64,000 nt of DNA from a virus (lineage: Duplodnaviria; Caudoviricetes), in IMG/VR virus record IMGVR_UViG_3300047313_000015, positions 33,340 to 97,339 of that record; one strand, 5' to 3'. A program made the translations under genes and the position numbers. Shown in pieces: positions 1 to 44,355 of the stretch; positions within the stretch are counted from its first letter, which is position 1, and each line of letters begins with the position of its first letter. A model generated the notes under the pieces. The model saw only the letters and a list, made by a program, of their open reading frames with translations. It did no database searches and was not told where the DNA came from.

Positions 1-900
1 GGTAGCAACGTGACCGATGGTGGTTACCGTACCGGCTGCGGTCGGCTGGTAAACGCCGCCCTGAGCACCGGTCTTGACGCCGTAAGCGGTAAGCGCGGTC
101 TTAAGACCCAGAAGGGCAGAAGAACCAGTACCGGTGTGAAGCTCAGCAGCGACGAATCGCCCGATGCTCTCACCGATACGCTCACGGACGAAGGTCTCCA
201 CGTCGAACGCGGTGTCGTTGATCGCTTCGATTGAAGCCAGCGCAACGTTCGAGGTGATAGTCCAGGCATTCATCATGCCCTGACCGAACACGTAGTCCTG
301 GAATCCGAGCTGAGTACCCTGTGCGCCAACGTAGTTACCCACGATAGCGGTCGGGTCAGTGGTCGGCCATGGCATCGGGTTACCGGTTGAGGTTTCCACG
401 ATCTTCGCCACGTTCAGAAGCCCGCCGAACTGCTTCAGCGCAACCTGTAGGTTGTGCCAGAACCCCTGCGGAACCAGGAAGCCAGCGTTCGATGCGCCAC
501 CCACGGTGTACAGGGCGTTCACGTCGTTCGTAACACGCTGCTCAAGACCTGTCAGTGCACGGCGGTCCTCACCGGCAAGACCGGCAATACCGTGGCGCAG
601 GTAGTTAGAGAAGGCGCGAGCGTGCGCGTCCTTGCTCTTGGCCTCGTACTCATCACGGGACTGGCCTGCGGTGTCCGCAGCGTTCTCGCGAGCGTCGTTG
701 AGCTTGTTGAAGTCAACGATTCGCTTCAGGTCTGAGTCCAGACCACGTAGTTCCTTCTCACGCCGGTCATACTCGACCGACTCCTCGGCTGACAGAGAGC
801 CCTCCTCGTTGAACTTCTCCATCAGATCGGCCATGCCACCATAGACGGTGGCGCGCTGCTCGCGAATGCCCTTCTCGCGGGCTGACATAACTCTAGCCAT
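1..900 (-). CDS. HK97-family major capsid protein (N-terminal 300 codons; runs off the window edge)
   Basis: Not in ORF track because truncated. Reverse strand from ATG at 900 (RBS GAGGAGG): MARVMSAREKGIREQRA... coiled-coil delta domain, then GGASNAGFLVPQGFWHNLQVALKQFGGL...ETSTGNPMPWP, typical of HK97 capsids; lies downstream of protease and portal. Confidence 0.9.
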   Translation of the reverse strand, partial: MARVMSAREKGIREQRATVYGGMADLMEKFNEEGSLSAEESVEYDRREKELRGLDSDLKRIVDFNKLNDARENAADTAGQSRDEYEAKSKDAHARAFSNYLRHGIAGLAGEDRRALTGLEQRVTNDVNALYTVGGASNAGFLVPQGFWHNLQVALKQFGGLLNVAKIVETSTGNPMPWPTTDPTAIVGNYVGAQGTQLGFQDYVFGQGMMNAWTITSNVALASIEAINDTAFDVETFVRERIGESIGRFVAAELHTGTGSSALLGLKTALTAYGVKTGAQGGVYQPTAAGTVTTIGHVAT

Positions 901-1629: not shown

Positions 1630-3090
1630 TTACAGGTTCCTGTCGATGGCCTGAAGCCGTGCCTTGGCTTCCTCGAAACGAAGCTGCATGTTCTCTGGCT
1701 TCATCCACTCCGCGTCCGGCTCATCTTCCGGATCCGGTGCTTCAGCCTCGGCGCGAGTCAGCTCAGACAGATACGGCTCGGCTCGGTTGAGGATGGTGAG
1801 AGCGGCGTCCGTAGGCGGCAGGTTGACAGCGGCCTCATAGATGGCGGTCATGTCACGCACCGCATCATCACTGGCGACGGCACCGATCTGACCGGCTGGA
1901 CCCCAGTATTCCGGTAGGAGATCTGCCAGGCCAAGATTGCCAGCCAGATCGATAGCGGCCATGCGGGTCGGCGCGTCACACGCAGCCTTGATCGCCTGTG
2001 CCAGCTTGTTAGCGTCATCAGCTCGCACGTATGCGCCTGGACCGACCCCAAAACTCACGTCGTTCAGATCTCCTTCAGAGTCCTGCCCCTCGGTCATCTC
2101 ACGGAAGTCGCAAAGAAGCTGCCAATCCTCAGTTTTCTTCTCGTCACCGATCTTGACACCGAACTGGGTCAGAGCGGCACGGATCTTGGACTTGATGCTG
2201 GCTAGCTGCTGTGCGGTGTACTCGGCGGCGTTGTCACCCTGATTGATGTAGCTCCAGGCTGCCTTTGCCCTCTTCTTGCTGTTCAGCGGGTAACGCTTCT
2301 TGCCGTCCTTCTGGTAGCCGGGGTCAGCGTACTTAACGTCACCATATGGCTTCTTGGCACCGTTACGGTTCTCGCAGACGTGCTCCTCAGACCGGTCTTC
2401 AATTTCAGAGCCGCATGAAGAGCAGTAGTTTCCAGCAGGCTGACTTGATGACATGGGCTCTCCGCAACTTGTGCAATATTCTCCGTACTGGCTGGTGGAA
2501 CCGCATTCACCACAGGTGGCCAGGTCCCCGTATGTGGCAGCGGCAGCTCGTTCGTCCTTAACGCCCCTGGCTGAGTTGACCTGGGCGCGAGCGGATACCG
2601 TGGTATCGCCGTAAGCGGGGAAGGTGCAGACCGAGATCTCATGGACCTTCATTTCAACGATCTCACGATTGGTTCCGTCCAGCGCTGTAGCTGGGTTCCC
2701 ATCGTCGTCGGTCCACTTGTCCTTGATTACCTCAAAACCGAAAGAACAACCACCGTAATTACCCGCTCTAACGTTCTTAACAACGTCTCTGGCATAAGAT
2801 GTGTCGGTAACTTTAGCATTCCAGTCACCGCCATTTGATCCATCTGTTAGCACTAGTGTACCAGCCGACATTCTTGCCAGCGGCTGATGGGTCTGGTGAT
2901 TGTCAAGAAGCACGATGTCACCATCGTTAATGCTCTTCTTCCCGGCCCCCGTCTTAATGACTTCACGGAAGCCATAAGGGCCCTTCCCGATCATCGTTGG
3001 CGACCCATACGGCCACGCGCGGCCATGAAGGGAGTTGTCGTCACCAGCTTCAGGTGCGGCCCTGCGCATGTAGCGGTATTCTACGGTCAT
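1630..3090 (-). CDS. HK97-type prohead protease fused to double zinc ribbon and a DUF6582-like domain
   Basis: LHGRAWPY, FREVIKTGA, LLDNH, GCSFGF, EISVCTFPAY protease motifs; CxxC pairs; YADPGYQKDGKKRYPL...AAWSYINQ domain. Confidence 0.9.
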   Translation of the reverse strand: MTVEYRYMRRAAPEAGDDNSLHGRAWPYGSPTMIGKGPYGFREVIKTGAGKKSINDGDIVLLDNHQTHQPLARMSAGTLVLTDGSNGGDWNAKVTDTSYARDVVKNVRAGNYGGCSFGFEVIKDKWTDDDGNPATALDGTNREIVEMKVHEISVCTFPAYGDTTVSARAQVNSARGVKDERAAAATYGDLATCGECGSTSQYGEYCTSCGEPMSSSQPAGNYCSSCGSEIEDRSEEHVCENRNGAKKPYGDVKYADPGYQKDGKKRYPLNSKKRAKAAWSYINQGDNAAEYTAQQLASIKSKIRAALTQFGVKIGDEKKTEDWQLLCDFREMTEGQDSEGDLNDVSFGVGPGAYVRADDANKLAQAIKAACDAPTRMAAIDLAGNLGLADLLPEYWGPAGQIGAVASDDAVRDMTAIYEAAVNLPPTDAALTILNRAEPYLSELTRAEAEAPDPEDEPDAEWMKPENMQLRFEEAKARLQAIDRNL

Positions 3091-4436
3091 TGCTGCTTTC
3101 CTCCGATGCCGTTTCCTCCGACGCCTGCCGGTGCTTTGGGTTGCATGGGTGATGCTGGTACTGCCTGCTTCGCGGGAAGTGCTCCTGGCTGCATATGCTC
3201 AAGATCTCCTGGTCCCATGTTCAGTGCGATGATCGGCTCATCCAGACCGTCAAGTGGCTCCATGTTTTCCTTGGTCCTTGCTTCGTTACGGGTCAGCCAC
3301 CCGGCTGAGATGCCCTGCGTGTAAGCGGCGAATCTTTCGGTCATGCTGCCCCGCAGCAGATGGTCAAGGTCGAACTCACTGTACTGCTTGCGGATGTTGA
3401 TGATCTCCCGGCTGACCCGCTGCTCAATCCTGTTCGTCCAGCCTGCTACGGTATAGCTGACGAAACCGGTGTTCTGGGTCTCGATACCAGTACCCCAGGA
3501 GGTTGACTTCTCGACATCGCCCACAAGGTGCGGTGGGATACCGAAGATACGGGCGATCTCGTTGGTCTGCCATCTACGTGACTCAAGGAACTGCATTGCG
3601 TCAGGGTCGATGGTCAGCGGCTGGAATTCAGTTGCTGCATCCAGGACGCCAACCTCAGCGGCGTTACCTACGCCGCCCATCTTCTGAAGCCACTTGGCAC
3701 GAATAGAATCGGCCTGCGTCTGGTTAGCCAGCGGGGCCTTGACCTTGATGATACCGCTCAGGATGGAACCCTTTGAGAAATACCGGGCAGCCAGCTTGTC
3801 ACCGGCCATAGCGGTACCGAATGTCCTGGCCGCCCACATGATAGGGCTAAGACCCTTCAGTCCGTCATAGCCCAGACCCGGGATGTGCATAACCTCGAAG
3901 TCAGTGAAAATAATAGGGCGCATATCCGTAGGCTGCACATCTTCCGGGAAGACCCGCTTCACCTCGAAGATCTTATTGCCTTCACGGTCACGCTTGACAT
4001 CCACGCGATCCGGGTAGATCGGCTGCAAGTCCACGATCTGGTCCGTGAGCGGGTTCCTGATCTTCCGGATGTATGCGTTGCCCCATAGGCAAAGATGGAC
4101 AACTACCAGCTCCCACAGCTCATACTGAGTGTAAGCCATCTCGTTGTTGCCACGGTCAAGCAGCGCGGGGAAAACCTCAATCTTGCCAGGGTCACGGTAG
4201 GTACGGATCGGGCAACCGGCGATAACCGTCCCCAGCAGGCCCACGCAGCGGAACACGGTCGGCAGGACCATGGAGTTCTCGGGGGTGACAGCCTCACCGG
4301 AGTCGGTGGTGGTCATGCCGCCGAAGATGTTGTCAAGACCGACAGAAGTCAGCGGGAACGCTGGATTTTCAAACGGATTGAACGTGCCACCGAATCCACT
4401 GGAACGCTGCTCGGTACGTGCGTTGAACAACGTCAT
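3087..4436 (-). CDS. Phage portal protein (HK97 family)
   Basis: VFRCV..., LWGNAY, VMHIPG..GLKGLSP, QFLESR...EIARIFGIPPHLVG, GWLTRNEAR..ENMEPL. Confidence 0.95.
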   Translation of the reverse strand: MTLFNARTEQRSSGFGGTFNPFENPAFPLTSVGLDNIFGGMTTTDSGEAVTPENSMVLPTVFRCVGLLGTVIAGCPIRTYRDPGKIEVFPALLDRGNNEMAYTQYELWELVVVHLCLWGNAYIRKIRNPLTDQIVDLQPIYPDRVDVKRDREGNKIFEVKRVFPEDVQPTDMRPIIFTDFEVMHIPGLGYDGLKGLSPIMWAARTFGTAMAGDKLAARYFSKGSILSGIIKVKAPLANQTQADSIRAKWLQKMGGVGNAAEVGVLDAATEFQPLTIDPDAMQFLESRRWQTNEIARIFGIPPHLVGDVEKSTSWGTGIETQNTGFVSYTVAGWTNRIEQRVSREIINIRKQYSEFDLDHLLRGSMTERFAAYTQGISAGWLTRNEARTKENMEPLDGLDEPIIALNMGPGDLEHMQPGALPAKQAVPASPMQPKAPAGVGGNGIGGKQQ

Positions 4437-4720: not shown

Positions 4721-6304
4721 TCAGTAGACAAAGCCGATCTGACTGACCGGCTTACTGTGCTCATTGCCTTCCTCGTCCTTCCAGGTATAGACAGGCTCAT
4801 CAAAGATTTCCTGAGTAAGCCAGTACCCGGCGCGGTCTGTAGCCATGACGCCTGCGACGGCGAGGTCAATCTTCCTGGGGGACTGGCGTGCGTCCTTCAT
4901 CAGCCTGGACCCACGGGAGTCAGTCTTGAGCTGGGCGTTCTCCAGATGACGGGCCAGTCTCGGGTCACCATCATGGGAGATCTTCCTGGTAGAAACCATC
5001 TCGTAAAAACGTTGCGTGGCCGGTCCCATTCTGCCCAGCGTCTGCGGGAACACAACGACCGGCAGTCCCTCATCTTCTAGATCCTCCGCCGCGTCCAGCC
5101 ATAGGTATTCGTCCCAGGCGATCTCACGTACACGGTAGTCCCGGCAGGCCTGGCGGATAGCGTCCTTGACAACACCTCGGGGCACGCGCCAGTCCGCATC
5201 ATCGGATGGTTTCTCCCACAGGCCTATAACTTTGATTCTCGGGTCCGACTCGATGGTGACCGCGACAAGAGCAGTGCAGTCCCCGTTCTTCGAGCCGTCG
5301 AATCCGAGAACAACACCCTTACGGGGCTGTACGAAACCACGGTCGGAATCACGGCAGGCTTCCCAGCTTCCCTGCGGGAGCCATGCCTTCGCCTGGCTGA
5401 CCCACTGGTTGAGTCTCTTGGTCCTGAACTCGTTCTCATGAACCTTCCTGACAACGGAGGAGAAGTCCTCTGGATCGATAAGATCCCCGTAACCCGGATT
5501 TGCGGCTTCCCAGACGGCGGGGTCACGGTGGTCTGCGCCTTTCGGCGCCCCGTACCACACCATGAAGAACGTGGGGTCTGTCTCTTCGCCATTGGCGATC
5601 TTCTCGCCGTGCTGGAAACGGCGGTAGCAAATGGAGTCACCACCGGTCTGGTCCGTTTTTACCCCGGCGGTTGTGATGATGATCAGCAGCGGGTCCTTGC
5701 GGGCTCCGAAAGCCTGTACCATAACGTTGTACAGCTCGTCGGTGGGCGCTGCGTGAAGCTCGTCGTAGATGACTACGGAAGGGTTAAGACCTTCCTTCGT
5801 GAAAGCCTCGGAAGAAAGAACCTTATAGATGGAACCGTTCTCCGTGTACTCCAGTGCGTCCCGGTAGATCTTGATCATGCCACCCTGGGAGGCGTCCAGC
5901 TCCGGGTCCAGTTCCACCATCCTGCGGGCGACGTTAAAAACGATCCTGGCCTGGTCCTTGTCCGCAGCACAGGAATAGACCTCTGCGCCAGGGTCACTGC
6001 CAATAAGACCGTAGAGGCCATAGGAGGAACCAAGAGCGCTCTTTCCGTTCTTACGGGGAAGGCCGATCAGTGCCTCACGATGACGAAGCCTGCCATCAGG
6101 ACGCCTGGCAAAAACACGGGCGGTATCGATGGACTGCCATGGCCGCATTCGCAGCAGCGTACCGGCGGATCCTCCCCAGGACTCCTTGGTAATCCGGCAG
6201 TAGGACTCTATGAATTCCGTGACAATGGCACCTTCGCCGCGCTCGATATCAGCGTCGGGCACCGGGGTCATGATCAGAGGAACAGCAGACATTTCAGAAT
6301 TCAC
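4721..6304 (-). CDS. terL: Terminase large subunit (Terminase_1 type)
   Basis: LPRKNGKS Walker A, VIYDELH Walker B, IITTAG coupling motif, WEAANP, GFDGS nuclease Asp, KIDLAVA. Confidence 0.95.
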   Translation of the reverse strand: MNSEMSAVPLIMTPVPDADIERGEGAIVTEFIESYCRITKESWGGSAGTLLRMRPWQSIDTARVFARRPDGRLRHREALIGLPRKNGKSALGSSYGLYGLIGSDPGAEVYSCAADKDQARIVFNVARRMVELDPELDASQGGMIKIYRDALEYTENGSIYKVLSSEAFTKEGLNPSVVIYDELHAAPTDELYNVMVQAFGARKDPLLIIITTAGVKTDQTGGDSICYRRFQHGEKIANGEETDPTFFMVWYGAPKGADHRDPAVWEAANPGYGDLIDPEDFSSVVRKVHENEFRTKRLNQWVSQAKAWLPQGSWEACRDSDRGFVQPRKGVVLGFDGSKNGDCTALVAVTIESDPRIKVIGLWEKPSDDADWRVPRGVVKDAIRQACRDYRVREIAWDEYLWLDAAEDLEDEGLPVVVFPQTLGRMGPATQRFYEMVSTRKISHDGDPRLARHLENAQLKTDSRGSRLMKDARQSPRKIDLAVAGVMATDRAGYWLTQEIFDEPVYTWKDEEGNEHSKPVSQIGFVY

Positions 6305-12794: not shown

Positions 12795-13121
12795 CAGCGT
12801 AGCTTCACAGAACGGCAGCAAGGCAAGGCGGTTGGAACAGCCGCCGGGTTCGCGGGTAAGGCCCCGATTCACGGGCACGCCAGCACCGGCCAGACTTTCA
12901 CCGCACCGGGGCTACAACTCCCATGCAAAACGCGAGTATGGGATCCCCCGCCACAAGGGCAATGCCTGAAAATGACACCCCTCTTGCTAACTGGCACATC
13001 GTGAGATTCCGCCTCTGTTCAGCGCGTGACCGTTCGGGCTATCTGCCCTGGTCCGCATGCGCAACGTGTGCACGGGAATCTCTTCCGAACTAACGTTTTA
13101 CCGCTTTTCCAGATAGTTTCA

Positions 13122-13297
13122 CCGATCACAACCTAGGAAGATACAGCGCACCCAATCCGGCAGACTTAACCGTCTGGTGGATTGCTAGCCTGTTGATTGC
13201 CTGGCACGGTTCGCGACCGATTGTGATCGCTACGGCAACGCTGCGCATGGTGGCCAGCGGATGATAGCCCGTGACGGTTCGATTCCGTCCGTTGCCA
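13122..13297 (+). ncRNA. Two tandem tRNA-like elements
   Basis: CGATCACAA/TTGTGATCG stem with CGG-TTCGCGA-CCG T-like arm; then GGCAACG/CGTTGCC-A acceptor with GACGG-TTCGATT-CCGTC T arm (64 nt). Confidence 0.55.
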
Positions 13298-13320
13298 CGT
13301 AAGGCAGAGAATCACTTGAG

Positions 13321-13376
13321 CTAGTGCTCTTACTGGCGGATAGGCACCATGCCTATCCGCTCGGTATGTCCGCTAG
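13321..13376 (+). repeat. Early intergenic stem-loop repeat, copy 1 (CTAGTGCTCT...TGTCCGCTAG)
   Basis: Same flanks at 15034-15087 and 15392-15486 around different hairpins. Confidence 0.8.
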
Positions 13377-13398
13377 ACCAACCAAGCGAGGGGCAAAA

Positions 13399-13680
13399 AT
13401 GGACATCACCGTCAACGTCTATGTCGGGGCGGATAACGCTACCGGCACAATCGACACTGACAAGATCGCTGCAATTGCCGCACGCAGGCACGATGGCTTC
13501 ACTATCCTGCCCGCGCTTGGCTACTGGCAGGGACAGTCCGAACCGTCCGTCATGATCGTTATCGCTGACGACAGTGACAAGATCTCTGCCACCGTCAGCG
13601 ACCTGGGCCGCGAATTGGCGCAAGACGCCATTGCAGTTCAGACCGTCAACCCACTCACTTTCGTGAGCGATTACCGCTAG
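13399..13680 (+). CDS. Hypothetical protein
   Basis: RBS GAGGGG, ATG 13399; DGFTI...GYWQGQSEPS motif. Confidence 0.75.
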   Translation: MDITVNVYVGADNATGTIDTDKIAAIAARRHDGFTILPALGYWQGQSEPSVMIVIADDSDKISATVSDLGRELAQDAIAVQTVNPLTFVSDYR

Positions 13681-13751
13681 CTGATTTGTCCGGGCACGGT
13701 GCGAACCGTGCCCGTTCATGTTCGCTAGACCCAACGATGAAAGGTACTGAC

Positions 13752-14087
13752 ATGACATTCCGCACCGGCGACCGTGTATGGTCCGCTAACGGCAATCTCG
13801 GCACCGTGACCAACGTTTCCGACGGTAGCCTGCTGGTCTCTGTCCTGCTGGACACCGGGCACACCGTTACCTGCCTGGCCAGGCTGTGCACGGTTGCGCC
13901 ATACGTGATCGATCCCGCCAACCTCACCGATGCGGAGATGGCCGCCGGTATCCAGCGCGGACTGTCGGACGGTTCGCTCATCGACGCAGCCGACTGGATG
14001 GCGGCGAACGCGCCGGAAAGCCACCCATTCAACGATGATGGCAGCGATCCCGGCAACTGTGCCACGTGTCATTTCTTCCACAAGTGA
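13752..14087 (+). CDS. Hypothetical protein (N-terminal SH3/KOW-like FRTGDRV)
   Basis: RBS GAAAGG before ATG. Confidence 0.6.
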   Translation: MTFRTGDRVWSANGNLGTVTNVSDGSLLVSVLLDTGHTVTCLARLCTVAPYVIDPANLTDAEMAAGIQRGLSDGSLIDAADWMAANAPESHPFNDDGSDPGNCATCHFFHK

Positions 14088-14363
14088 GGATAGACGCCAT
14101 GCGTAAGCCCACCAGCGTTCAGCTAGCAAACGCTCGCAGGTCCATTCCTGTGCATCACCCGGCAACGCCGGACTTGCGCGAGTCATGGTCCGTGGATAAC
14201 CCGCACGGTGCGGAAATCCACTACCCAACGCACGATGAGGCAGCCGCAGCGGCGCGCACCGGTATTTACTGACCGGTAGTGAGCACGGCGCACAATCTCC
14301 CGGGAATGTGCGCGGTGTCCTTTACCGGACCAACCAAAAATCCTGCACATGAGAGGCCCTAAA

Positions 14364-21968: not shown

Positions 21969-24053
21969 CTAGGTTTTCGCCCCTCCCAATCGGTCAGTAG
22001 TAATTGTCCCGCCGTGCCTGTCGGTTGCTATCTTCCCGCCGTAATTTACCGAGGCCGTATCGATAGAGCCCGCGAAACTATCATGCGAGATCGTGCCTGA
22101 GTAGTGGTCGGCCTGTGTGATCGTCCCGCCGAGGCCGGTGGTCAGCGTAAGGATAACCCCGACCACGGCAGCCAGCGTGTCTGCGCCTGCACCGGTATCA
22201 GCCAGGAACACGTGCACGGCCAGCGTCAGGATGTCCGAGCCCGCACCTGCCTCTGCCAGCGGCACAGCGGCACTGGTAGCCAGCGATGAGGATCCCGTCC
22301 CGGAATCGATTAGCTGTATGCCGGGTGTCAGTGTGTCCGCGCCGGAACCGCTATCAGCGAACGATACAGTCACCGTGACGGTAAGCGTGTCAGTCCCGGT
22401 GCCCGTATCCGCCAGGCCTGCCGTTGCCGTAACGCTGAGAGCGTCTGTACCGGTGCCGGAATCCGGGAGAGCCACCGGAGTACCGGTCGCTACTGAAAGG
22501 CTGTCAGATCCAGCCCCAGCGTCGGCCAGGGCTATGGCCGCGTTCGTGCCCAGCGAGTCGGTGCCTGTACCTGCATCAGACAGACTGACCGTTACAGTCA
22601 GCAGATCCGTGCCGGTGCCGGAATCGGTCAGGAAGGTTGTCAGGCCGGTGGTGAGCGAATCGCTGCCAGTGCCAGAATCAGATAGCGGAATACCGATCTT
22701 AAGAGAATCGGATCCCGAACCAGAATCCGTCAGTGGTGCGGTGGCTGTCAGTGACAGCGCGTCAGATCCTGCACCCGAATCAGTTAGCTGGACAGTAATA
22801 GCCAGCGAGTCGGTGCCTGTACCTGAATCAGATAGCAAGGTCTGCTGACCGGATAGCAGGATATCGCTACCTGTACCGGAATCAGAGAGTGCTATCCCGA
22901 TGATAAGGGAATCTGCACCCGCGCCGCTGTCCGTTAGCTGGACCGAAGCCGAGGTGGTAACCGCGTCGGTGCCAGTACCCGAGTCAGATAGCCGGTTGGT
23001 TATTGCCAGCGCATCTGCGGCAGTGCCTGAATCGGTAAGTGATACCGCTGCACTTACCGCAAGGGCATCGGAGCCAGAGCCGCTATCTGTAAGGTTTACA
23101 GATACTGACAGTGCGTCCGTACCGGTGCCGGTATCTGCCAGCGGAACAGCGACCGATACCGTTAGCACATCGGAGCCGGTTCCCGCGTCGATCAGTGATT
23201 GTGCTGCCGCCGTGCTAAGTGCGTCTGTTCCTGCGCCTGAATCGGAAGTCCCAATCGCCGCATCGGCGGCTAGCGCATCAGCGCCCGTACCCGAGTCAGC
23301 AAGGGAAATGCTGGACGTGCCGTTAACGGCATCCGGAATGACCGGAGTAAGTCTCTTGCGTCCGCTTCGGTTCTGTCGCCAGTATTTACCCCCGTGCGGA
23401 ATCGGGTAACCTGGGGGAGCCGCAGCCGCGCCCAGTACCTCGACCGCGACAATACCCCAGAAGTCCGAGTTAGACTCGGAGAATCCAGTAGTTACGGTTC
23501 CGCCGGTAGTAGTCCAGGTGCCACCGGCTGTGTTGTCGGCGGCAGTATTTCCGTCGCCACCCTGACTCCAGCGGGTAGTAGCCCCAGTGCCAGTTGCAGA
23601 TATAGATCCGGCTAGGGAACCAACGCTGGCCGTTGCTGCTATCAGGTTGCCGCTGGTCGTACCGGTAACGTTGACCGATACCGAAGTACCCGACGTGAAT
23701 GAAGTGAATACGGTGCCGAACCCGGAAGCACCGGTAAAGGTGATCGAGCCACCGGTAACATGGTTAGCACTGACATCAGAAAAGGTTACCGATACCGTGT
23801 TAGAACCTGTCGGCAGCGTATCTGATTTCAGTCCCCAGAAATCGATACCGCCAGGACCGACATTGTTAGCTGCTATCTGGCCCAGCCGGGAGAGCGCAAC
23901 ACCGCCATAGGAAACGGCGGTAACGGTAGAGCTTGTGCCGGTTCGGTAGTTGACGCCAACTACAATTGCATTACCAGCATTGGAATGCAGCCAGGTGCCG
24001 GGGCTAGTGGTTATCGCGGCGCCGGAAGCAGTAACGGCATCGAAGGCGACCAT
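21969..24053 (-). CDS. Repeat-rich protein (about 25 LxDSGTGxDxL repeats), probable virion fibre or decoration
   Basis: N-terminal beta domain (VAFD...DFWGIVAVEV) then tandem ~19-aa repeats. Confidence 0.75.
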   Translation of the reverse strand: MVAFDAVTASGAAITTSPGTWLHSNAGNAIVVGVNYRTGTSSTVTAVSYGGVALSRLGQIAANNVGPGGIDFWGLKSDTLPTGSNTVSVTFSDVSANHVTGGSITFTGASGFGTVFTSFTSGTSVSVNVTGTTSGNLIAATASVGSLAGSISATGTGATTRWSQGGDGNTAADNTAGGTWTTTGGTVTTGFSESNSDFWGIVAVEVLGAAAAPPGYPIPHGGKYWRQNRSGRKRLTPVIPDAVNGTSSISLADSGTGADALAADAAIGTSDSGAGTDALSTAAAQSLIDAGTGSDVLTVSVAVPLADTGTGTDALSVSVNLTDSGSGSDALAVSAAVSLTDSGTAADALAITNRLSDSGTGTDAVTTSASVQLTDSGAGADSLIIGIALSDSGTGSDILLSGQQTLLSDSGTGTDSLAITVQLTDSGAGSDALSLTATAPLTDSGSGSDSLKIGIPLSDSGTGSDSLTTGLTTFLTDSGTGTDLLTVTVSLSDAGTGTDSLGTNAAIALADAGAGSDSLSVATGTPVALPDSGTGTDALSVTATAGLADTGTGTDTLTVTVTVSFADSGSGADTLTPGIQLIDSGTGSSSLATSAAVPLAEAGAGSDILTLAVHVFLADTGAGADTLAAVVGVILTLTTGLGGTITQADHYSGTISHDSFAGSIDTASVNYGGKIATDRHGGTITTDRLGGAKT

Positions 24054-37061: not shown

Positions 37062-38840
37062 TCAGGCGTGGTGCACGTCCACCAGGCCAACGGCCCACCA
37101 GTCAGACTGCGCGACTGGCCATGTCATCGTAACAGAGGATCCGGTGCCCGGTGCCGTAGCACCCGCCGAGTTGCCTGCCCCCGTGTTCGCGTTCACGTTC
37201 TCCAGCAGGCTGTGCACCGCCGGTACAGCCGGTGCCTGGAGGCTGTTGCCTGCCGCAGCGAACCCGGCGATCATGTCGTTCGCACTGGCTGAGCTGATCG
37301 CAGCATGGGCCGAGCTGGAGAAGCCCACCGCAGACGCGACCGCTGAGAACGGGCTCACCTGGTCAGCCCCGGTGAACGACTCAGACACAGCAGACAGCGC
37401 AGGACTTGAGCAGCCACTCACGGTCATCGAGAAGCTGTTCGCACCTGATGCCGGTGCTACCGCGCTCCACAGGTCCATGAACCCGGCGTGCTGGTTGTTC
37501 GTATGGAACACGCCCAGCTTGGTCATTGTCACGCCGTTGAGCTTAACGGTCTGCGTGCACCCGTTGTCATTGCTGGTGCCGACAGTGCTCTCCACCAGGA
37601 CCGCACGGCCTGCTCCTGCCCCGATGTTCTGAGTCCAGTTCAGCGGAGTCGTGCCGGTCTTTTTCCCGCCCGCCTGCGAGTCGAAAGCAACCGCTGAACC
37701 TCCACCCGCAGGTGAGGTGGTGAAGGTCTGGTCATTGCCAAATGTGGTTCCGGTAGCGTTCGTGGCCTCCACCCGGAAGTGGTACAGGGTGTCCGGCAGA
37801 AGTCCGGTCACATTATCTGGCTCACTCACCCCGGTGCTTCCGGAACCGGCGCTGCCCGAGCCTGTAGAGGTCCCATAGGCGTTCGTGGTGCCGTAGTCGT
37901 ACTGGAAGGTGGTCGCTGCACCTTCGGGGTTCACCGTCCCGTTCAGCGTTGCGCTGGTGTCAGTCACAGCGCTGGCCGGGTCGGTGCTGACCGCTGGCGC
38001 CTGCTGTGTGTTACCGCCACCGTTGACCACGGTCGAGTAGTTGCTCACGCCGTAGGTCTTAGCACCGGAGCCAGTAGCGCAGATCTCCAGCCCGTAGTTA
38101 AGCTGGTCGATACCGAAGCTCGCGGTGTTCAGGTAACCCTGCGATACCAGGTAGTTATAGAACCCGATCCGGTCCAGTGATCCCGATACCGAGTTGACCT
38201 TACGGACAAAGGAAACGATGTCAGCGTTGCTGCTGACGGTGGTGGATCCAGTGTTGACCCATACCTCCCACTGAGTACCAGCAGCGTCGGTATACACATT
38301 CCCGGTGTCGCGACCGGCAGGCACCTGACCATGGGTGTCAGTCCAGACCATCATCTCGAAGTCGTTTGTCCATGAGTTCTGGTTCGGGTTTGCCAGCCAG
38401 TCATCGATAGCGTACTCATAATCCTGGCCGGTGCCTGATGGTTCCAGGTTGGTGTAGTTGCTGATCAGCGATGTACCGAAGGTGGAGACCGGTTCCGGCT
38501 TGCCTGCGGTAGTCGTATAGGTGACCTGCGTAGCCGGGTAGCTCTTCACCGAAGTTTGATCTTGCTGTGCGTGAGCGTCAGCGGTGACGGTCCAGCTCGT
38601 TGAGTCCTGCGCGGTCAGGGTCTGCGGGATAGCCGAGAAGTCGTTCTGCGTAACGAGATCGGTGGCGTTCGCCGTGCGGAATACGGTGGGGTCCTGATAG
38701 GGACCGCAGTTGCCGCTCGTACTGGACGTGGTACAGGTAGCGGCGAGCGCTGATGGCGCTGCGGCTACGGCTACGGCTGCTGTGCCTGAGAATGTCAGCA
38801 GTCCTGCTGTCAGGACAGATACCAGTTTTCTGCGGATCAT
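37062..38840 (-). CDS. Secreted GH12-like glycoside hydrolase with FN3 and C-terminal beta domain
   Basis: Signal peptide; VKSYP, YAIDDW, FEMMVW (nucleophile Glu), YGLEIC (acid/base Glu); SATLNGTVNP...GLLPDTLYHFRVEA FN3. Confidence 0.85.
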   Translation of the reverse strand: MIRRKLVSVLTAGLLTFSGTAAVAVAAAPSALAATCTTSSTSGNCGPYQDPTVFRTANATDLVTQNDFSAIPQTLTAQDSTSWTVTADAHAQQDQTSVKSYPATQVTYTTTAGKPEPVSTFGTSLISNYTNLEPSGTGQDYEYAIDDWLANPNQNSWTNDFEMMVWTDTHGQVPAGRDTGNVYTDAAGTQWEVWVNTGSTTVSSNADIVSFVRKVNSVSGSLDRIGFYNYLVSQGYLNTASFGIDQLNYGLEICATGSGAKTYGVSNYSTVVNGGGNTQQAPAVSTDPASAVTDTSATLNGTVNPEGAATTFQYDYGTTNAYGTSTGSGSAGSGSTGVSEPDNVTGLLPDTLYHFRVEATNATGTTFGNDQTFTTSPAGGGSAVAFDSQAGGKKTGTTPLNWTQNIGAGAGRAVLVESTVGTSNDNGCTQTVKLNGVTMTKLGVFHTNNQHAGFMDLWSAVAPASGANSFSMTVSGCSSPALSAVSESFTGADQVSPFSAVASAVGFSSSAHAAISSASANDMIAGFAAAGNSLQAPAVPAVHSLLENVNANTGAGNSAGATAPGTGSSVTMTWPVAQSDWWAVGLVDVHHA

Positions 38841-38943: not shown

Positions 38944-39189
38944 TTAGTTGGTGCCCTTGTACTCCGCGTAGGCCTCACGTGATGATTGCAGGAACCCGAC
39001 TTCCTTACGGCGGGCAGACAGCTTGTCCTTGTTGTAGGCGGTGTGCAGACGAGCGGCCTCACCAGCATGCTGTATACGAGCGGCCTGTACTCTGGCAGTA
39101 CGCTTGGACACGGCTTCCTGGTGCTTATGGCCGTTGCGAACCACCGATACGGCGATGATGACCAGCAGCAGGAAGATAAGGAATGCGAA
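38944..39189 (-). CDS. Small membrane protein
   Basis: MFAFLIFLLLVIIAV TM; RBS AAAGGAG. Confidence 0.65.
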   Translation of the reverse strand, partial: FAFLIFLLLVIIAVSVVRNGHKHQEAVSKRTARVQAARIQHAGEAARLHTAYNKDKLSARRKEVGFLQSSREAYAEYKGTN

Positions 39190-39206
39190 CATCGAGGTAA
39201 CTCCTT

Positions 39207-40154
39207 TCAACTGTCTATTATAGACGCCGTTATCATTTGCGGGGGAAAATCTATTTGTTTCGGGATGTACTCCACACCCTGTGGCAGTACCATGACTCCC
39301 ATAGCGTTGTTCTGGGCGGTCTCGTACCGCTCTTTCATCACCTCGACAGCTCGGGCCAGATCCTCAGGTGAGGCAGCCTTGACCAGACCGATATTAGGGA
39401 CGAACTCCTCGCAGGCTCCGGAAGGCTCCAGCAGTTCCCTCGCCTGCTTCCACATCTTATCTCGTTTCTCTCGCATGAGCTTCTGACCGGCCGGAACCAT
39501 CCTTCCCCCGCTGAGGATGGCATCGATCGAGTTGATCTGCGCATTCAGGCGGTTGAACTCGAACTTCTCCGCCGGGCTCATGGTTCTGGTGAGGACTTTA
39601 TCCGCTTTAGATGGCTCAAGGAACGGACGTGGGACGCCATCACGGATCTCAATAGGCAGGCCGAACAGGTACTTCGGGTCCTGTACCAGCATCGGTGGCG
39701 TCCAGACGAGGCGGCCACTGCCGTCAGTCATGTTTCGAAGTTCGTAAAAATGAGCGTAGCTGAAAACCCAGTGCATGTTCTGAGTACCACCAGCAGGTGC
39801 CTTCGAGTAGACACGAAGAATTTCATCGTACAGGGGAGAAATACCCGACTGCTCCCTGATCTCGTTGAGGGTCAGGGCACCCCGGCTAGCGTTCCTCACT
39901 CGCGCCTGGTGGGCCGGGTCATGATCGTAGAACTCATCCACCGCTGTCTGCTCGGCCTGTGAGATCAGCTCCAGGACCGACGTGGCGAACACGTCCTGCT
40001 CCAGTCGATAGATGCTGGTGCGCAGCCTGGCGTCACGCAACCACGGGCTGGTCCGGCGAAGCGGCAGGAAGTAGAGCGAGGCATAATAAACGACGACTAC
40101 GATGGCCAGGAACATGAGGAATATCATCATGCCTACCATCGTAGCCGCCGTCAT
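39207..40154 (-). CDS. Membrane-anchored mosaic of capsid-like and portal-like fragments
   Basis: N-terminal TM; GALTLNEIREQSGISPL (portal), WVFS..F.ELRNMTDGSGRLVW.P...LFGLPI (capsid), KERYE..QNNAMGVMVLPQGVEY (portal). Confidence 0.65.
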   Translation of the reverse strand: MTAATMVGMMIFLMFLAIVVVVYYASLYFLPLRRTSPWLRDARLRTSIYRLEQDVFATSVLELISQAEQTAVDEFYDHDPAHQARVRNASRGALTLNEIREQSGISPLYDEILRVYSKAPAGGTQNMHWVFSYAHFYELRNMTDGSGRLVWTPPMLVQDPKYLFGLPIEIRDGVPRPFLEPSKADKVLTRTMSPAEKFEFNRLNAQINSIDAILSGGRMVPAGQKLMREKRDKMWKQARELLEPSGACEEFVPNIGLVKAASPEDLARAVEVMKERYETAQNNAMGVMVLPQGVEYIPKQIDFPPQMITASIIDS

Positions 40155-40178: not shown

Positions 40179-40781
40179 TTAGAAGCTCCACCTCTTGTAG
40201 AAGCTGGTGTTGAACCAGCTCACGGTAGACAGCGAGACACCGAAGGTGTTGGTAGATGCCAGCACCCGCAGGTCGTCCAGCCGCTGCGTCTCCGCCCGGT
40301 TGATCCACACATCATGACCGCCACTCGTACCGTGACCCCATACCGTGGCTGTACCGTTCGTGCAGCTCGCGGTCGTTACGGCACCCAGGTCACCCGAGTA
40401 GCACAGGCCGGGATGACCGGTCAGGTGCAGCAGCCCGGTGTTGTACGTGTGCGTGCGGAACGTGAACGTGTTGCCGTTCCCCACGAACTTAGTATCCTCC
40501 GCAGGTCCCGGTGTCTGGTTCCCGGAGAACATCACCGACCCTGCCGAGTCGCTGTTGTTGGTGTCCCGGGCACAGAGCAGTGCGTCACTGGTCTTGCACA
40601 GCGGACGGGGTGAGATGTCCGGCTCAATAGTAACCGGATCCGGGTACCCGTCCGAGGTATCAGCGGATACCGCCGCATGTGCGGGTGCGGTCTGGGCTGC
40701 CATCGCTGGCGCCCCGCTCGTAACCGCCAGGGCCAGGATACTGAACCCGGCTACTGCGGTATTGCGAATGAACTTATGCAT
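40179..40781 (-). CDS. Secreted ricin-B/beta-trefoil-like protein 1
   Basis: Signal peptide; CARD.NN, GLCY...TASC..GTATVW. Confidence 0.7.
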   Translation of the reverse strand: MHKFIRNTAVAGFSILALAVTSGAPAMAAQTAPAHAAVSADTSDGYPDPVTIEPDISPRPLCKTSDALLCARDTNNSDSAGSVMFSGNQTPGPAEDTKFVGNGNTFTFRTHTYNTGLLHLTGHPGLCYSGDLGAVTTASCTNGTATVWGHGTSGGHDVWINRAETQRLDDLRVLASTNTFGVSLSTVSWFNTSFYKRWSF

Positions 40782-40801
40782 GTTCTACCTCTCCGTTGTT
40801 T

Positions 40802-41356
40802 TTAGCCCTGGCCGGTTGCTGGTGACCAGCGCTGGAATCCGTTGCCATCACTCTCGAATGATAGCTGACCAGAGTTGCCGCTGCCGGTAACGAACTGGTT
40901 GCCGTCGAGGGAGTTAGAATACAGCCGCGACTCGAACTTCGGTGCACCGTTGACGAACACTTCCGCCACAATGGTTCCGGTACCGGTGTCGCACGCCTGC
41001 GTGGTGATGAAGCCGCCTGAGGTGGATCCGACGCAGCGGTTAGAGTGCTGGAGAAGGAAGATCTCCCCGTTCTCCCGTGTAACACCGTTGTAGTTCGACT
41101 GCGTGCCCAGATCCTGCCACTGGAAGTCGGTGGCTGACCCGAACACGCCCTTGGACCCCTCTACCACCGGATTGCCGGTGTTCTGGGAGTCGTTGGCGTC
41201 CCGCATGGCGAAACTGCCGGAGGTTTCATTCAGGACATGGATGGTGGACCTGCGAGCAGGCTGTACCGTGCTGGCACTGGCCGCCAGTGGTGCGAATGGG
41301 GCTGCCATGGCCACGACGGCGAATGCAGCCATCAGGATTGATGATACGTTTTTCAT
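40802..41356 (-). CDS. Secreted ricin-B/beta-trefoil-like protein 2
   Basis: Signal peptide; DFQW, RCVG...QAC, FQRW. Confidence 0.7.
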   Translation of the reverse strand: MKNVSSILMAAFAVVAMAAPFAPLAASASTVQPARRSTIHVLNETSGSFAMRDANDSQNTGNPVVEGSKGVFGSATDFQWQDLGTQSNYNGVTRENGEIFLLQHSNRCVGSTSGGFITTQACDTGTGTIVAEVFVNGAPKFESRLYSNSLDGNQFVTGSGNSGQLSFESDGNGFQRWSPATGQG

Positions 41357-41371
41357 TTACTGCCTCTCTTG

Positions 41372-41905
41372 TCAGACGGAGTGGAGGAACACCTGGCGCC
41401 AGCAGCCGCAGCCACTTGGCCCGAAGGTTTTCCACTGAGTTCCGTTGGAAGCACCCAGCGGAAGTCCCAGAGCGATGTTATCATGGGTTCCTGCTTGCTG
41501 ATCACAGTACCGGTTGATCAGCAGGAAACCACCTGCGCCCAGATCATGAAGAGCCCATACCGTTCCGTTACTCGTAGAGTCGCTTTTTATTGTGACTCCG
41601 GAACAGGAATTGTTGGCTGCCATGAAGTTACCGTTACTCAGGGTGAACTCCCCGGCGTCATCACTGAAATAGAACGTGTGATCATTGAAGTGCAAGTTGC
41701 GAGCCCGCCCGCTGCTTACACCAATGATCATTGTCCCAGCGTTAAGATCGTCAGATCCCACATACTGAAGTGAGTCGCCCGTAAGCTGGATCTGGTATGG
41801 TCCCGACACTGAAGCCGGTACTGCCGGTCCAGCCATAGCCGGGGCCGACAGTCCAACGACCATGACGATACCCGCCAGGACCGCGCCGATCTTGCCTCTT
41901 ATCAT
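41372..41905 (-). CDS. Secreted beta-trefoil-like protein 3
   Basis: Start MIRGKIG; signal peptide; NGTVW..LINRYCD. Confidence 0.6.
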   Translation of the reverse strand: MIRGKIGAVLAGIVMVVGLSAPAMAGPAVPASVSGPYQIQLTGDSLQYVGSDDLNAGTMIIGVSSGRARNLHFNDHTFYFSDDAGEFTLSNGNFMAANNSCSGVTIKSDSTSNGTVWALHDLGAGGFLLINRYCDQQAGTHDNIALGLPLGASNGTQWKTFGPSGCGCWRQVFLHSV

Positions 41906-41945
41906 ATTATTCCTTCCTTCGCCCGCCACCCTGGCAGACAAGTTT

Positions 41946-42551
41946 TTACCGGAACTCGTAACGAACGAATCCGGCGTGGTTATTATACGAAACAATGATC
42001 ATGCTGGTGACGCTGGCACCGGGATCGAACCCTTCCAGCACCTCATAGTCTCCCGGATCCGGGTTGAGGGTCTGCTGTGCCAGCCGGTTGATCCATATAT
42101 CGGCGCCATTTGCCCTGCCATGCAGCCAGATGGTGCCACGGCCACCAGCACATGGCTGTGTTACCAGCTCGCCCTGAGTGGACCCGGTGCCCGTGCCGAT
42201 ACACAGGTTGGTATGGCCCGTGAACTTGAGGGTGCCCTCCTGGAATACAGTCCCGTTCACGTTCAGGTGGCTGCCATTGCCGAGGAACCTGGAGTTCTCC
42301 GCAGGGCCGGTGATCTCGGTCCCGGTGACCACGAAGTTTCCGGTGGTGTCCAGGTTGTTCGCGTCACGGGCACAGCCGGTGCCCGATGCCTGGCACATCT
42401 GAAGCGGGACATCCGGGCTGGTATCACCATCGGGAGCAGCGGTGATCGGAGGCTGGCTTGCCTGCGCTGGTGATGCGAAATGCGCCGGTGCGATCAGGGC
42501 GATCACCGCAGCGAGAACCGTAAGCCTCCCGGCTGTTTTTCTGCTGATCAT
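41946..42551 (-). CDS. Secreted ricin-B/beta-trefoil-like protein 4
   Basis: Start MISRKTAG; closely similar to 40179-40781 (CARD.NN.D, GPAE, FLGNG, GH..LC, D.WINR). Confidence 0.7.
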   Translation of the reverse strand: MISRKTAGRLTVLAAVIALIAPAHFASPAQASQPPITAAPDGDTSPDVPLQMCQASGTGCARDANNLDTTGNFVVTGTEITGPAENSRFLGNGSHLNVNGTVFQEGTLKFTGHTNLCIGTGTGSTQGELVTQPCAGGRGTIWLHGRANGADIWINRLAQQTLNPDPGDYEVLEGFDPGASVTSMIIVSYNNHAGFVRYEFR

Positions 42552-42598
42552 GCTAACTCCTCGCTGAATTAGGTAGTTTAGGTAGTTCGTTAGCAGGT

Positions 42599-43951
42599 TT
42601 AAATGATCTGCCAGAACACCTGGCAGTCTGCCGTGGCCGCCCTGATGCTGAACGTGCCTGTGCCTCTGCTGGTAACGAACACGGTGCCAGGGCTGGTCGT
42701 GTTGATCGCTGTCAGCAGGATTCCGCTGGATGACCAGCACCACGGAGTGCTCACTGTAGCAACCTGACCGGAGGTGGTGACGAACCCGGATCGTTCTTTG
42801 ATGCTGGTGCCCTGGTAGCCGCCAACCTGAACAAGATTGGTGCCCAGTTTCAGGTGGTCCGCGATGGAATGGTTGTGAATGGCTTCGCCGCTCTGGCCGG
42901 TGGAGTAGTTGAGGATCCCATCGGACCAGGAGACCAGCTCAGCCTGACGGGCGCCTGTGCCAGCCTGCTGGAGGTACAGCGCATACTTCGGTGAGCCGGT
43001 GGCGCAGTCGAGGTTGTTCACCGCTGAGTCGGTGCCTGTGATCTTGACCCGGTTCCTGCCCTGGACCCTGATGGCCGCGAAGTCACCGCCGAGGCCGTTG
43101 TTGTGGCCGTCGCCCTCGAAGCAGCAGCCGGTAATGTTGACCGGTACTCGCCAGTCACCGCCAGTGGGTGAGCTGTTGGTGATCAGCACGCCATCTTCCG
43201 CGTTACGTTCGGTTGAGCAGCCGATCATCTTGATGTCGTCGCCAAAAGCGCCATTGTGGTCGAGCACGTAGCCGCAGCCGAAGGAAAGGTCGGCACGGCA
43301 GCCAAGAAGGGTGGAGTTACCGCCTGAACTAGGTGAGGAGAAGAACCCGCTGCCTACGCCGTCCACATAACCCGCGTACTGGGTGTGCACGTCTCGCAGG
43401 GTGGAGTCGGGTGGCCAGCGGTGAACCGCGTTGAACCCGGGCTGCTGCACCATGACGGTGTCCATCTTGCAGGCGTCTCCGTCTACCCCGTCACTGCCCT
43501 GGAACCATGCGATGCCATGGCCGGTGACAAGGGCAATGGAGACCTCTTGCAGGTTCAGCCCGTTCACGTTTCGATGACAGGCGATACCTTCCACATTGGC
43601 TGGCATGTTAGCGTCCCCGCAGATGCCGATCTTCCGGATCGCCAGGTTGCAGCTACCGTCCAGCACGTCGATGACAGCACCGCCGCCACTGGCAGCGAAT
43701 GATGTCCCGCAGCGGAGGTTGGTGCCGCCGGGGAACTTGCTGGACCTGCCGTTGATGCCGCCGTGCTGGCCGGTGATGGTGAAGCCGGTGAGGAAGGCGG
43801 TGGAGATCGGCTGTGACAGGTAATAGTCGCCTACATCAAAAACGATCTGGCCCATGTCACCGGCTGCGAGGAGTGCTGCGGTGATGGTGGCGGAGTCGGT
43901 AACTCCGGTGAGATCACCTGATGGCGGGCCTAGTGCTACTGTTGCTGGCAT
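42599..43951 (-). CDS. Right-handed beta-helix protein (tailspike or depolymerase-like)
   Basis: GD.TGVTDSATITAAL..GDYYLSQPI pectate-lyase-3-like start, repeated G/C/N beta-helix rungs. Confidence 0.8.
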   Translation of the reverse strand: MPATVALGPPSGDLTGVTDSATITAALLAAGDMGQIVFDVGDYYLSQPISTAFLTGFTITGQHGGINGRSSKFPGGTNLRCGTSFAASGGGAVIDVLDGSCNLAIRKIGICGDANMPANVEGIACHRNVNGLNLQEVSIALVTGHGIAWFQGSDGVDGDACKMDTVMVQQPGFNAVHRWPPDSTLRDVHTQYAGYVDGVGSGFFSSPSSGGNSTLLGCRADLSFGCGYVLDHNGAFGDDIKMIGCSTERNAEDGVLITNSSPTGGDWRVPVNITGCCFEGDGHNNGLGGDFAAIRVQGRNRVKITGTDSAVNNLDCATGSPKYALYLQQAGTGARQAELVSWSDGILNYSTGQSGEAIHNHSIADHLKLGTNLVQVGGYQGTSIKERSGFVTTSGQVATVSTPWCWSSSGILLTAINTTSPGTVFVTSRGTGTFSIRAATADCQVFWQII

Positions 43952-43953
43952 AA

Positions 43954-44355
43954 TTAGCTGTTCTCCTTCAGTTCAAACACGCGGAGGGCATCTCTCAGAG
44001 AGTTCTTGGGTGTGGCTACCATCATCTTCTGGACGATGGAGTAAAACCTTCCGTCGGAATACCATGACCAGGTGGGTGCGACGGAGTACGTAATGATGAT
44101 GGAAGATCCTTGCGGCAGAGAGAAACTTCCGCTGGTTCTGCCAGTGACGCCGCCGTTGATCTGAACCTGGGACACTGTGCCGCCGTTGATGGTGATCTGC
44201 TCGGGCCAGAAGTTGCTGTTGGTCACTGATACACCGGAGGCAGGGAGGGCAGGGGTGCTGCCCTTGTAAATGGTTCCCACAGCACCCTGCTTTGCCTGGT
44301 CGGTGTTTACGACCTGCCATTGACCGGGGCCGTGGGACTGTGCCTTCAGTGTCAT
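43954..44355 (-). CDS. Hypothetical protein containing a tail-fibre-like beta segment
   Basis: TPALPASG..VTN...ITINGGTVS.V.ING...ITYSVAPTW.W. Confidence 0.6.
   Translation of the reverse strand: MTLKAQSHGPGQWQVVNTDQAKQGAVGTIYKGSTPALPASGVSVTNSNFWPEQITINGGTVSQVQINGGVTGRTSGSFSLPQGSSIIITYSVAPTWSWYSDGRFYSIVQKMMVATPKNSLRDALRVFELKENS

Follow-up and report, generated by a model that had tools for sequence, protein, structure and literature searches.

The window analysed here, a stretch of 64,000 nucleotides, forms the right-hand part of an IMG/VR virus record of 97,339 bp, which is 87% complete according to CheckV. The source of the record is a soil metagenome and the phage is uncultured. On the minus strand, positions 39207..40154 hold an open reading frame of 315 aa, referred to below as the mosaic, which ends with a TGA stop codon at 39207-39209. 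The true start of the protein is probably Met6 (position 40139), which gives a product of 310 aa, because the N-termini of the homologues read MVSM and the Atlas record begins at residue 6. Residues 1-32 (40059..40154, minus strand) form an N-terminal membrane helix with a Kyte-Doolittle value of 2.81, modelled with a pLDDT of 84-94. No Lys or Arg lies ahead of the helix and five are found in the next 15 residues, a pattern identical in 10/10 family members, and a second hydrophobic segment is absent from all 10 full-length members. The positive-inside rule predicts an N-out/C-in topology, in which the helix would serve as a signal-anchor and the body of the protein would lie in the cytoplasm. 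A membrane location, as expected of a superinfection-exclusion protein, is predicted from sequence for all members through this single N-terminal hydrophobic helix. A scan for promoters and terminators returned a site count no higher than in shuffled sequence. No RNA dataset is listed as containing the stretch, which occurs only in the probable source soil metagenome.

The mosaic gene is located in an accessory cassette, 35 kb from the head genes, and is thus outside the head block, where a capsid gene would be expected beside the portal and protease genes. The real major capsid gene (1..900, minus strand; Pfam 148.5 bits) runs off the window start, the whole gene being placed at C1:32887-34239 of the record. 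The real portal gene (3087..4436, minus strand) scores 282 bits with Pfam and aligns with the HK97 portal 8cez at E 5.8e-50. The order of the cassette is conserved in five related loci. It begins with a beta-helix protein of ~450 aa (K1-lyase-like), followed by two to four secreted proteins of ~200 aa each, the mosaic, a small membrane partner of 81-89 aa with a basic tail behind its N-terminal membrane helix, and a secreted GH12/FN3-type protein of 600-890 aa. The resemblance of the ~200-aa secreted proteins to ricin-type lectins is to be taken as a lead only. In this phage, the partner gene (38944..39192, minus strand) encodes 82 aa, with a membrane helix at the N-terminus and a tail that is basic and helical; it begins 17 nt past the mosaic stop, is preceded by an AAGGAG ribosome-binding site, and has orthologues of 37-58% identity directly downstream of the mosaic in 5 related loci. 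The secreted GH12-like protein downstream of the mosaic is not a recognised endolysin, and a probable lysis pair, read from N-terminal sequence only, consists of a GH25-like protein and a 92-aa membrane protein at C1:13057-14280. Like this pair, the head and tail genes are located away from the cassette. Pup, DUF1707 and the relatives of the lectins suggest an actinobacterial host.

The capsid module of the mosaic, cap, covers residues 101-181 (39612..39854, minus strand) and corresponds to the A-domain core of HK97-fold major capsid proteins, with the C-terminal family signature GLPxxIRDGxxxPxLE. The Pfam profile Phage_capsid (PF05065) matches the mosaic at E 7.8e-8, with 32.5 bits against a cut-off of 24.2, and aligns residues 107-182 with profile positions 146-218 of 280. 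The same cut-off is passed by the homologues P0004, P0006, P0007, P0009 and P0010, and PHROG 10 (major head protein) likewise matches the mosaic. A cap profile built from 14 relatives finds residues 257-320 of the RcGTA capsid protein (E 5.9e-9) and, by hhalign, residues 312-379 of the lineage's own capsid protein (P 1.1e-12, probability 97.8%). Within the family, the invariant residues of the module include W/G/G/P/L/E. The region matches the core of the A-domain, which in HK97 gp5 is the stretch around ...VLNPRDW...GLPVV.... AlphaFold (AF2), supplied with a module-wise alignment, models cap residues 101-180 with a pLDDT of 85-96 as an A-domain-sized alpha/beta unit at residues 107-181. The best Foldseek matches of the model in the PDB and BFVD are HK97-fold capsids, over 62-90 columns with an rmsd of 2-5 Å. 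The model of the mosaic holds neither P-domain- nor E-loop-like parts, so a complete HK97 fold is absent from it. Cap is a genuine copy of the HK97-type capsid A-domain, comprising nearly the whole core. It is an old copy, as its identity with the capsid protein of the same phage is only 24.7% over 97 aa. That the pieces arose by recent duplication of head genes within this phage was considered and is ruled out by this 25% identity in cap.

Three further modules resemble other sites of the head proteins, each resemblance being below threshold when a single sequence is used. These were assigned by comparing family profiles, one per module, with alignments of the lineage's real portal and capsid proteins. 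Module p1 (aa 86-113; 39816..39899, minus strand), which carries a TxNExR motif, resembles the conserved C-terminal motif of the portal. Its profile matches residues 375-397 of the lineage portals with an hhalign P of 2.6e-4 and a probability of 43%, against a P of 0.22 for the capsid protein as control. When its HMM was run against the 2,229 ORFs of all fetched loci, nine lineage portals were among the top non-family hits, with individual E-values that are non-significant. Module p2 (aa 257-310; 39225..39386, minus strand), with the core MVLPxGxEY at aa 287-296, resembles a mid-portal segment. Its profile matches portal residues 252-279 (P 3.7e-4, probability 36%), the control against the capsid protein giving a P of 0.12. 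The Pfam profile Phage_portal (PF04860) finds p2 at its positions 163-209 with E 2.4e-3 and 17.6 bits, below the cut-off of 39.1, and profile positions 160-213 are matched again in 5 homologues at 12.9-17.3 bits, also below the cut-off. A search of the p2 profile against PDB sequences returned no portal and just chance ENL hits. By alignment with the HK97 portal, p2 lies just ahead of the conserved FG(V/I)PPHL stretch and p1 near the C-terminus; going by the usual order of portal domains, p2 and p1 would be the stem/clip and crown regions. Module sc (aa 190-253; 39396..39587, minus strand) is an antiparallel helical hairpin, with model helices at residues 194-215 and 221-242, and resembles the N-terminal delta (scaffold-like) region of the capsid protein. 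Its profile matches capsid protein residues 35-63 at P 4e-4, with a control P of 0.4 against the portal. In the search of the 2,229 ORFs, ~14 capsid-protein N-termini rank right after the family, their individual E-values being non-significant, and a wide structure search with VIA-align of residues 189-246 returned generic helical hairpins only. The delta and portal origins of sc, p1 and p2 are accordingly probable, not proven.

The last two modules are specific to the family. Module H1 (aa 59-89; 39888..39980, minus strand) is a helix shared with P0006, P0010 and P0021, and a link between it and head proteins was not found. Module E (aa 244-276; 39327..39425, minus strand) is a beta-hairpin followed by a helix (SPExLxRAVE) and is the best-conserved module, with 39-48% identity across the family and 7 invariant columns. 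No counterpart of E was found among PDB sequences, the comparison with the portal gave a P of 0.19, and its HMM finds nothing among the 2,229 ORFs.

The original prediction had described the product of this gene as capsid and portal fragments joined into a membrane-anchored chimera. This description is borne out by the N-terminal helix, by cap above its Pfam cut-off and by p1, p2 and sc at P ~3e-4. The delta site and the two portal sites that it quoted are precisely those matched by the family profiles, with negative cross-controls. Of the segment-wise Pfam matches that it anticipated, the one to Phage_capsid was obtained, while that to Phage_portal stayed below the cut-off. The assertion that the pieces are too short to fold fails for cap, which is confidently modelled, superposes on solved capsids and exists as a stand-alone protein of 79-130 aa. 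Neither of the two outcomes named as contradicting the prediction, an absence of portal or capsid hits and a fold as one unrelated domain, was observed. The roles that it proposed, a decoy for defences sensing the capsid or portal or an inhibitor of rival head assembly, would be compatible with the rapid divergence of the mosaic, with the indifference to module order and with the binding of the capsid A-domain by Avs proteins.

The mosaic belongs to a small family in which the modules are shuffled. When 1.84 billion representatives were searched exhaustively with HMMER, 22 hits were obtained, nine of which are anchored proteins of 237-437 aa with reordered modules. With TM denoting the membrane helix, the mosaic of this phage reads TM-H1-p1-cap-sc-E-p2. 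The order in P0003 is TM-cap-E-p2-sc, and in P0007 and P0005 it is cap-p1-p2-sc, P0005 being a record without its N-terminus. P0004 and P0009 share TM-cap-sc-p1-p2-E, and P0012 has TM-cap-p1-p2-E. P0006 and P0010 follow TM-H1-p1-E-cap(-sc), with neither p2 nor sc in P0010. Cap is absent from P0021 (TM-H1-E-p1-p2-sc), and P0016 consists of TM-cap with a Cys-rich tail. Altogether, ~10 metagenomic relatives retain the anchor and display at least four different module orders, which agrees with the earlier claim of a scrambled order and with its expectation that homologues with shuffled segments exist. Three of the orders each recur in two or three independent samples, and therefore they are not assembly artefacts. 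Chimerism of the metagenome assembly was examined as a source of the architectures and is ruled out, as three of them recur across independent samples and assemblers.

The composition of the protein fits a set of beads on a string, with modules that would act independently rather than as one integrated fold. Such a reading follows from the variable order, from the linkers, which are rich in Pro and Glu, and from a low pTM despite good local confidence. The AF2 model of the whole mosaic has a mean pLDDT of 78.6 and a pTM of 0.42. It was built on the composite alignment A8, the alignments A6 and A7 having been dropped for sc rows, and in A6 also p2 rows, misplaced on cap. The single-sequence AF2 model, made without an alignment, has a pLDDT of 44.

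Relatives of the full architecture are hard to find outside this family. A word-indexed search of 5.8 billion proteins recovered the mosaic itself only, and the family alignment as a query added little. In GenBank phages, tblastn with the mosaic and two cap-only proteins found no counterpart, save one real capsid gene. Neither a pattern scan across the genomes of 185,579 bacterial species nor a single-protein scan of viral contigs found a relative. The Atlas feature search gave no usable hit, and the low-confidence Atlas model matches capsid clusters weakly. The literature consulted, including a 2026 review, describes no protein class of shuffled head-protein fragments on a membrane anchor. 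The family is probably an undescribed, fast-evolving mimic of phage head proteins, with a putative function in decoying or interference.

The cap module also occurs alone in other phage lineages, as proteins of 79-130 aa which end directly after the ...PHLE signature. In L011 such a protein is encoded downstream of the head genes, ahead of a methyltransferase/glycosyltransferase cluster, and in the high-GC phage L034, which also has a variant with a Zn-ribbon insert, between the portal and terminase genes. In L035 it lies between a tail protein and a GH12-like gene, and in L032, a phage of 69 kb related to this one, it follows RtcB and precedes a small multi-pass membrane protein. The cap-only proteins are rare, with ten stand-alone hits among 5.8 billion proteins. 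Two of them score only 23.6 bits (L011) and 13.5 bits (L034) against the carrier's own capsid, compared with 88-111 bits against the family. As the L011 and L034 modules are unlike the carrier's capsid but close to the family, cap appears to spread as a family and not to be re-copied from each carrier's capsid gene. In the lineage of the mosaic, the capsid proteins nearest to the cap profile are the phage's own, at 46-52 bits.

The rate of evolution sets the mosaic apart from its surroundings. Orthologous cassettes share 73-79% identity in the beta-helix protein, 43-82% in the GH12-like protein and 37-67% in the partner. For the mosaic the figure drops to 23-30%, with rearrangement, so that no other gene of the cassette evolves as fast. 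Its evolution is also much faster than that of the head proteins to which it is similar, the portals of the lineage being 73-80% identical and the capsids 78-91%. Fast evolution of this kind is the usual signature of a conflict gene, and it means that the modules do not track the slowly changing head proteins of the phage itself. Searches for an integrase or a resolvase in the 97-kb record (87% complete) were negative, and no family member was found in the 185,579 bacterial species genomes; because of these two results, the mosaic probably acts during lytic infection.

The free order of the modules, their turnover between relatives, the rapid divergence and the predicted cytoplasmic display of the most conserved head-protein surfaces together point to separate binding surfaces of the conflict type, and speak against a constant component of head assembly in this phage. 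The best explanation, which is held tentatively, is a membrane-tethered mimic that would titrate factors recognising conserved surfaces of head proteins, most likely host immune sensors. It is in the same degree possible that the mosaic works as a multi-epitope decoy, in which the shuffled A-domain, delta and portal copies would bait and neutralise several receptors that sense monomeric head proteins. A decoy is favoured since the modules match named head-protein sites with negative cross-controls, and since the predicted topology places them in the cytoplasm, where both the head proteins and the sensors are present. The anchor would display to the cytoplasm a string of small independent modules, namely the capsomer-forming A-domain, the delta/scaffold-like hairpin and the two portal segments, joined to two family-specific modules. 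Each module would bait whatever recognises the matching surface on free (monomeric) head proteins, and the anchor would hold the captured factor and the bait away from the phage's assembling heads and from DNA. The most likely targets would be sensors that detect the capsid or the portal, such as Avs-type STAND NTPases and similar systems. Avs7, Avs8 and Avs10 have been reported to bind the A-domain of the capsid on the face that forms capsomers, and many further defences are triggered by capsid, scaffold or prohead proteins (2026 review, PMC13728456). The carrier of the decoy would be a virulent actinobacterial phage, the set and order of the modules would be reshuffled in an arms race, and the stand-alone A-domain proteins would be its single-epitope form.

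Several observations run against a decoy. Binding of a bait would normally activate an Avs-type sensor, and it has to be assumed that tethering silences the bound sensor rather than fires it. The envelope-directed neighbours in the cassette fit a role at the cell surface or in superinfection exclusion better, and the three weaker homologies rest on a P of ~3e-4 each. The core activity may also lie elsewhere in the protein, because module E, the best-conserved one, has no head-protein counterpart; E may carry the real activity of the mosaic.

The main alternative, for which the odds are put rather low, is interference between phages or superinfection exclusion. The tethered pieces would here be dominant-negative and would capture the capsid, scaffold, portal or terminase of co-infecting phages, blocking the assembly of rival heads at the membrane. 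In HK97-type phages, capsomers form through the A-domain face, and the delta region and the portal segments likewise serve as interfaces in assembly. The cassette, with four secreted ricin-like proteins, the GH12-like protein and the beta-helix protein, resembles functions of exclusion by masking or destruction of receptors. The poor match of the cap-only proteins to the carrier's capsid (13.5 and 23.6 bits, against 88-111 bits for the family) would be expected of a foreign target, and the fast evolution of the mosaic also speaks for this alternative. Capsomer interfaces are specific, however, and a module only 25-35% identical to any known capsid is unlikely to co-assemble. Capsomers are held together by contacts of the E-loop, the N-arm and the P-domain, all of which are missing from a lone A-domain. 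Moreover, within the lineage of the mosaic, cap is nearest to the capsids of the phage itself (46-52 bits), which would require some means of avoiding self-poisoning.

This last similarity, in which the cap profile scores highest with the capsid proteins of the lineage, speaks for a role in the phage's own morphogenesis or its timing, which is improbable on the whole. The mosaic would in this case be a membrane platform on which portal and capsid subunits of the phage itself are nucleated or parked, or, jointly with the small membrane partner, a sensor that couples head assembly to events at the envelope such as lysis or secretion; T4 gp40, which serves the membrane-bound gp20 initiator, offers an analogy. 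The tight coupling to the conserved small membrane protein and the conservation of the mosaic across the lineage agree with such a role. It is opposed by the position of the gene in an accessory cassette 35 kb from the head genes, by an evolution far faster than that of the capsid and portal it would bind, and by modules that are lost or reordered, as in P0021 without cap and in P0010 without p2 and sc. The probable lysis pair, read from N-terminal sequence only, also lies elsewhere, at C1:13057-14280. The short pieces, the scrambled order and the rarity of the family might finally suggest a non-functional mosaic, that is, recombination debris of head genes that has stayed open, which is very improbable. 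Intact ORFs of 237-437 aa are found in ~10 independent metagenomic lineages, with the anchor conserved in each. In addition, the modules have invariant residues (7 columns in E; W/G/G/P/L/E in cap), synteny and translational coupling are conserved, and the capsid module is confidently folded in the model.

The tentative reading as a decoy and its main alternative differ in what they would mean. Bacterial immunity recognises folds that are conserved among phage head proteins, and several receptor families share the A-domain face of the capsid as a target. If the mosaic is a decoy, it would be the first natural countermeasure that mimics a trigger, beyond point mutations; if it is aimed at other phages, it would represent a new kind of exclusion at the level of assembly. 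Under either reading, pieces of essential structural genes have been recruited as accessory modules. The mosaic also supplies an autonomous A-domain of 80 residues, usable directly in binding assays with capsid sensors.

In comparison with known systems, the mosaic is neither a capsid protein, as it holds the A-domain only and lies outside the head block, nor a portal, as its match is below the cut-off and its predicted structure shows no portal fold. With HK97-fold capsids (PF05065; RcGTA 6TBA/6TB9, HK97 gp5 2FT1) it shares homology and the same predicted fold in residues 101-181. It differs from them in having only ~70 of the 280 profile positions, without the P-domain, E-loop, N-arm and spine helix, and in the fusion of cap to an anchor and to unrelated modules outside the head block. 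Two short segments resemble the two best-conserved motifs of HK97-family portals (PF04860; 8CEZ), at P ~3e-4 each, but together they span less than 60 of the 450 aa of a portal and do not preserve the order that they have there. The Gol peptide of T4 gp23 is a short capsid stretch recognised by a host factor (Lit). Like Gol and the capsid triggers of CapRel, Avs7/8/10 and Thoeris, cap is a short conserved stretch of capsid, which would act alone as the element recognised by a host factor. Those triggers are parts of a real capsid and activate defence, whereas the mosaic is a separate, anchored and fast-evolving product of the phage. T4 Imm/Sp, HK97 gp15 and T4 gp40 are proteins of superinfection exclusion or of membrane-bound head initiation. 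They are small phage proteins of the inner membrane made during infection, as the mosaic would be, yet they share no sequence similarity with it, and none of them is built from fragments of head proteins.

The cap module of the mosaic, the membrane-anchored protein built from capsid- and portal-like modules in scrambled order, ends at window positions 39612-39640 (minus strand), and this end was compared with the portal gene (3087-4436, minus strand). In most relatives the module, a copy of the HK97-fold capsid A-domain, is closed by the signature G-x-G-P-P-H-L-E, which is weaker in the mosaic of the window (PRPFLE). The real portal carries FGIPPHLVGD directly after the segment resembled by the mosaic module p2. 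The terminal signature may add a very short fifth element of portal type to the mosaic, or its likeness to the portal motif may have arisen by chance.

A basic membrane-anchored protein of 82 aa (38944-39192, minus strand), translationally coupled to the mosaic, is kept in five related loci with 37-58% identity and is a possible physical partner of the mosaic. At L032:1432-1940 (plus strand), in a relative of this phage measuring 69 kb, RtcB is followed by a stand-alone cap-module gene and then by the gene of an 86-aa multi-pass membrane protein. Here, the bait (the cap module) and the anchor (the membrane protein) may be divided between two genes.

The conserved cassette begins with a 450-aa protein preceded by a 133-aa protein (42599-44355, minus strand), both 73-79% identical to their relatives. 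The former has a weak beta-helix match, and its 449-aa counterpart on a different contig, with a weak match to Pfam K1-lyase_C, adjoins a stand-alone cap gene; the latter matches the C-terminus of the tail-spike PHROG 11182. Four paralogues, each about 200 aa long and secreted by way of a signal peptide, lie side by side at 40179-42743 (minus strand), and every related cassette has orthologues of them, 2-4 per locus. Their Atlas features suggest a relation to the ricin-type beta-trefoil lectins of Actinomycetota. The secreted 592-aa protein (37062-38840, minus strand) is orthologous to the GH12+FN3 proteins of related phages, at 43-82% identity. A tail-like protein of 694 aa (21969-24053), a probable receptor-binding protein, shares 31% identity in its N-terminal part (residues 3-210) with the last 200 aa of this secreted protein. 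Such sharing of a domain by a secreted glycanase and a probable receptor-binding protein is unusual in a phage.

Two proteins with GH25-lysozyme-like N-termini are encoded outside the window, at 13057-14280 and 5400-6005 of the whole viral contig. One adjoins a 92-aa membrane protein where the tail genes end, and the pair is probably the true lysis cassette, judging from N-terminal sequence only.

Another phage encodes both a canonical cap-only protein of 85 aa (L034:7980-8237) and a 121-aa variant (L034:12393-12758, minus strand), the A-domain motif of which is interrupted by a zinc-ribbon-like CPxCP insert. A further stand-alone cap-module gene (L011:7655-7906, plus strand) is flanked by head genes on one side and by a methyltransferase and three glycosyltransferases on the other, surroundings which recall the virion-glycosylation clusters of actinophages.
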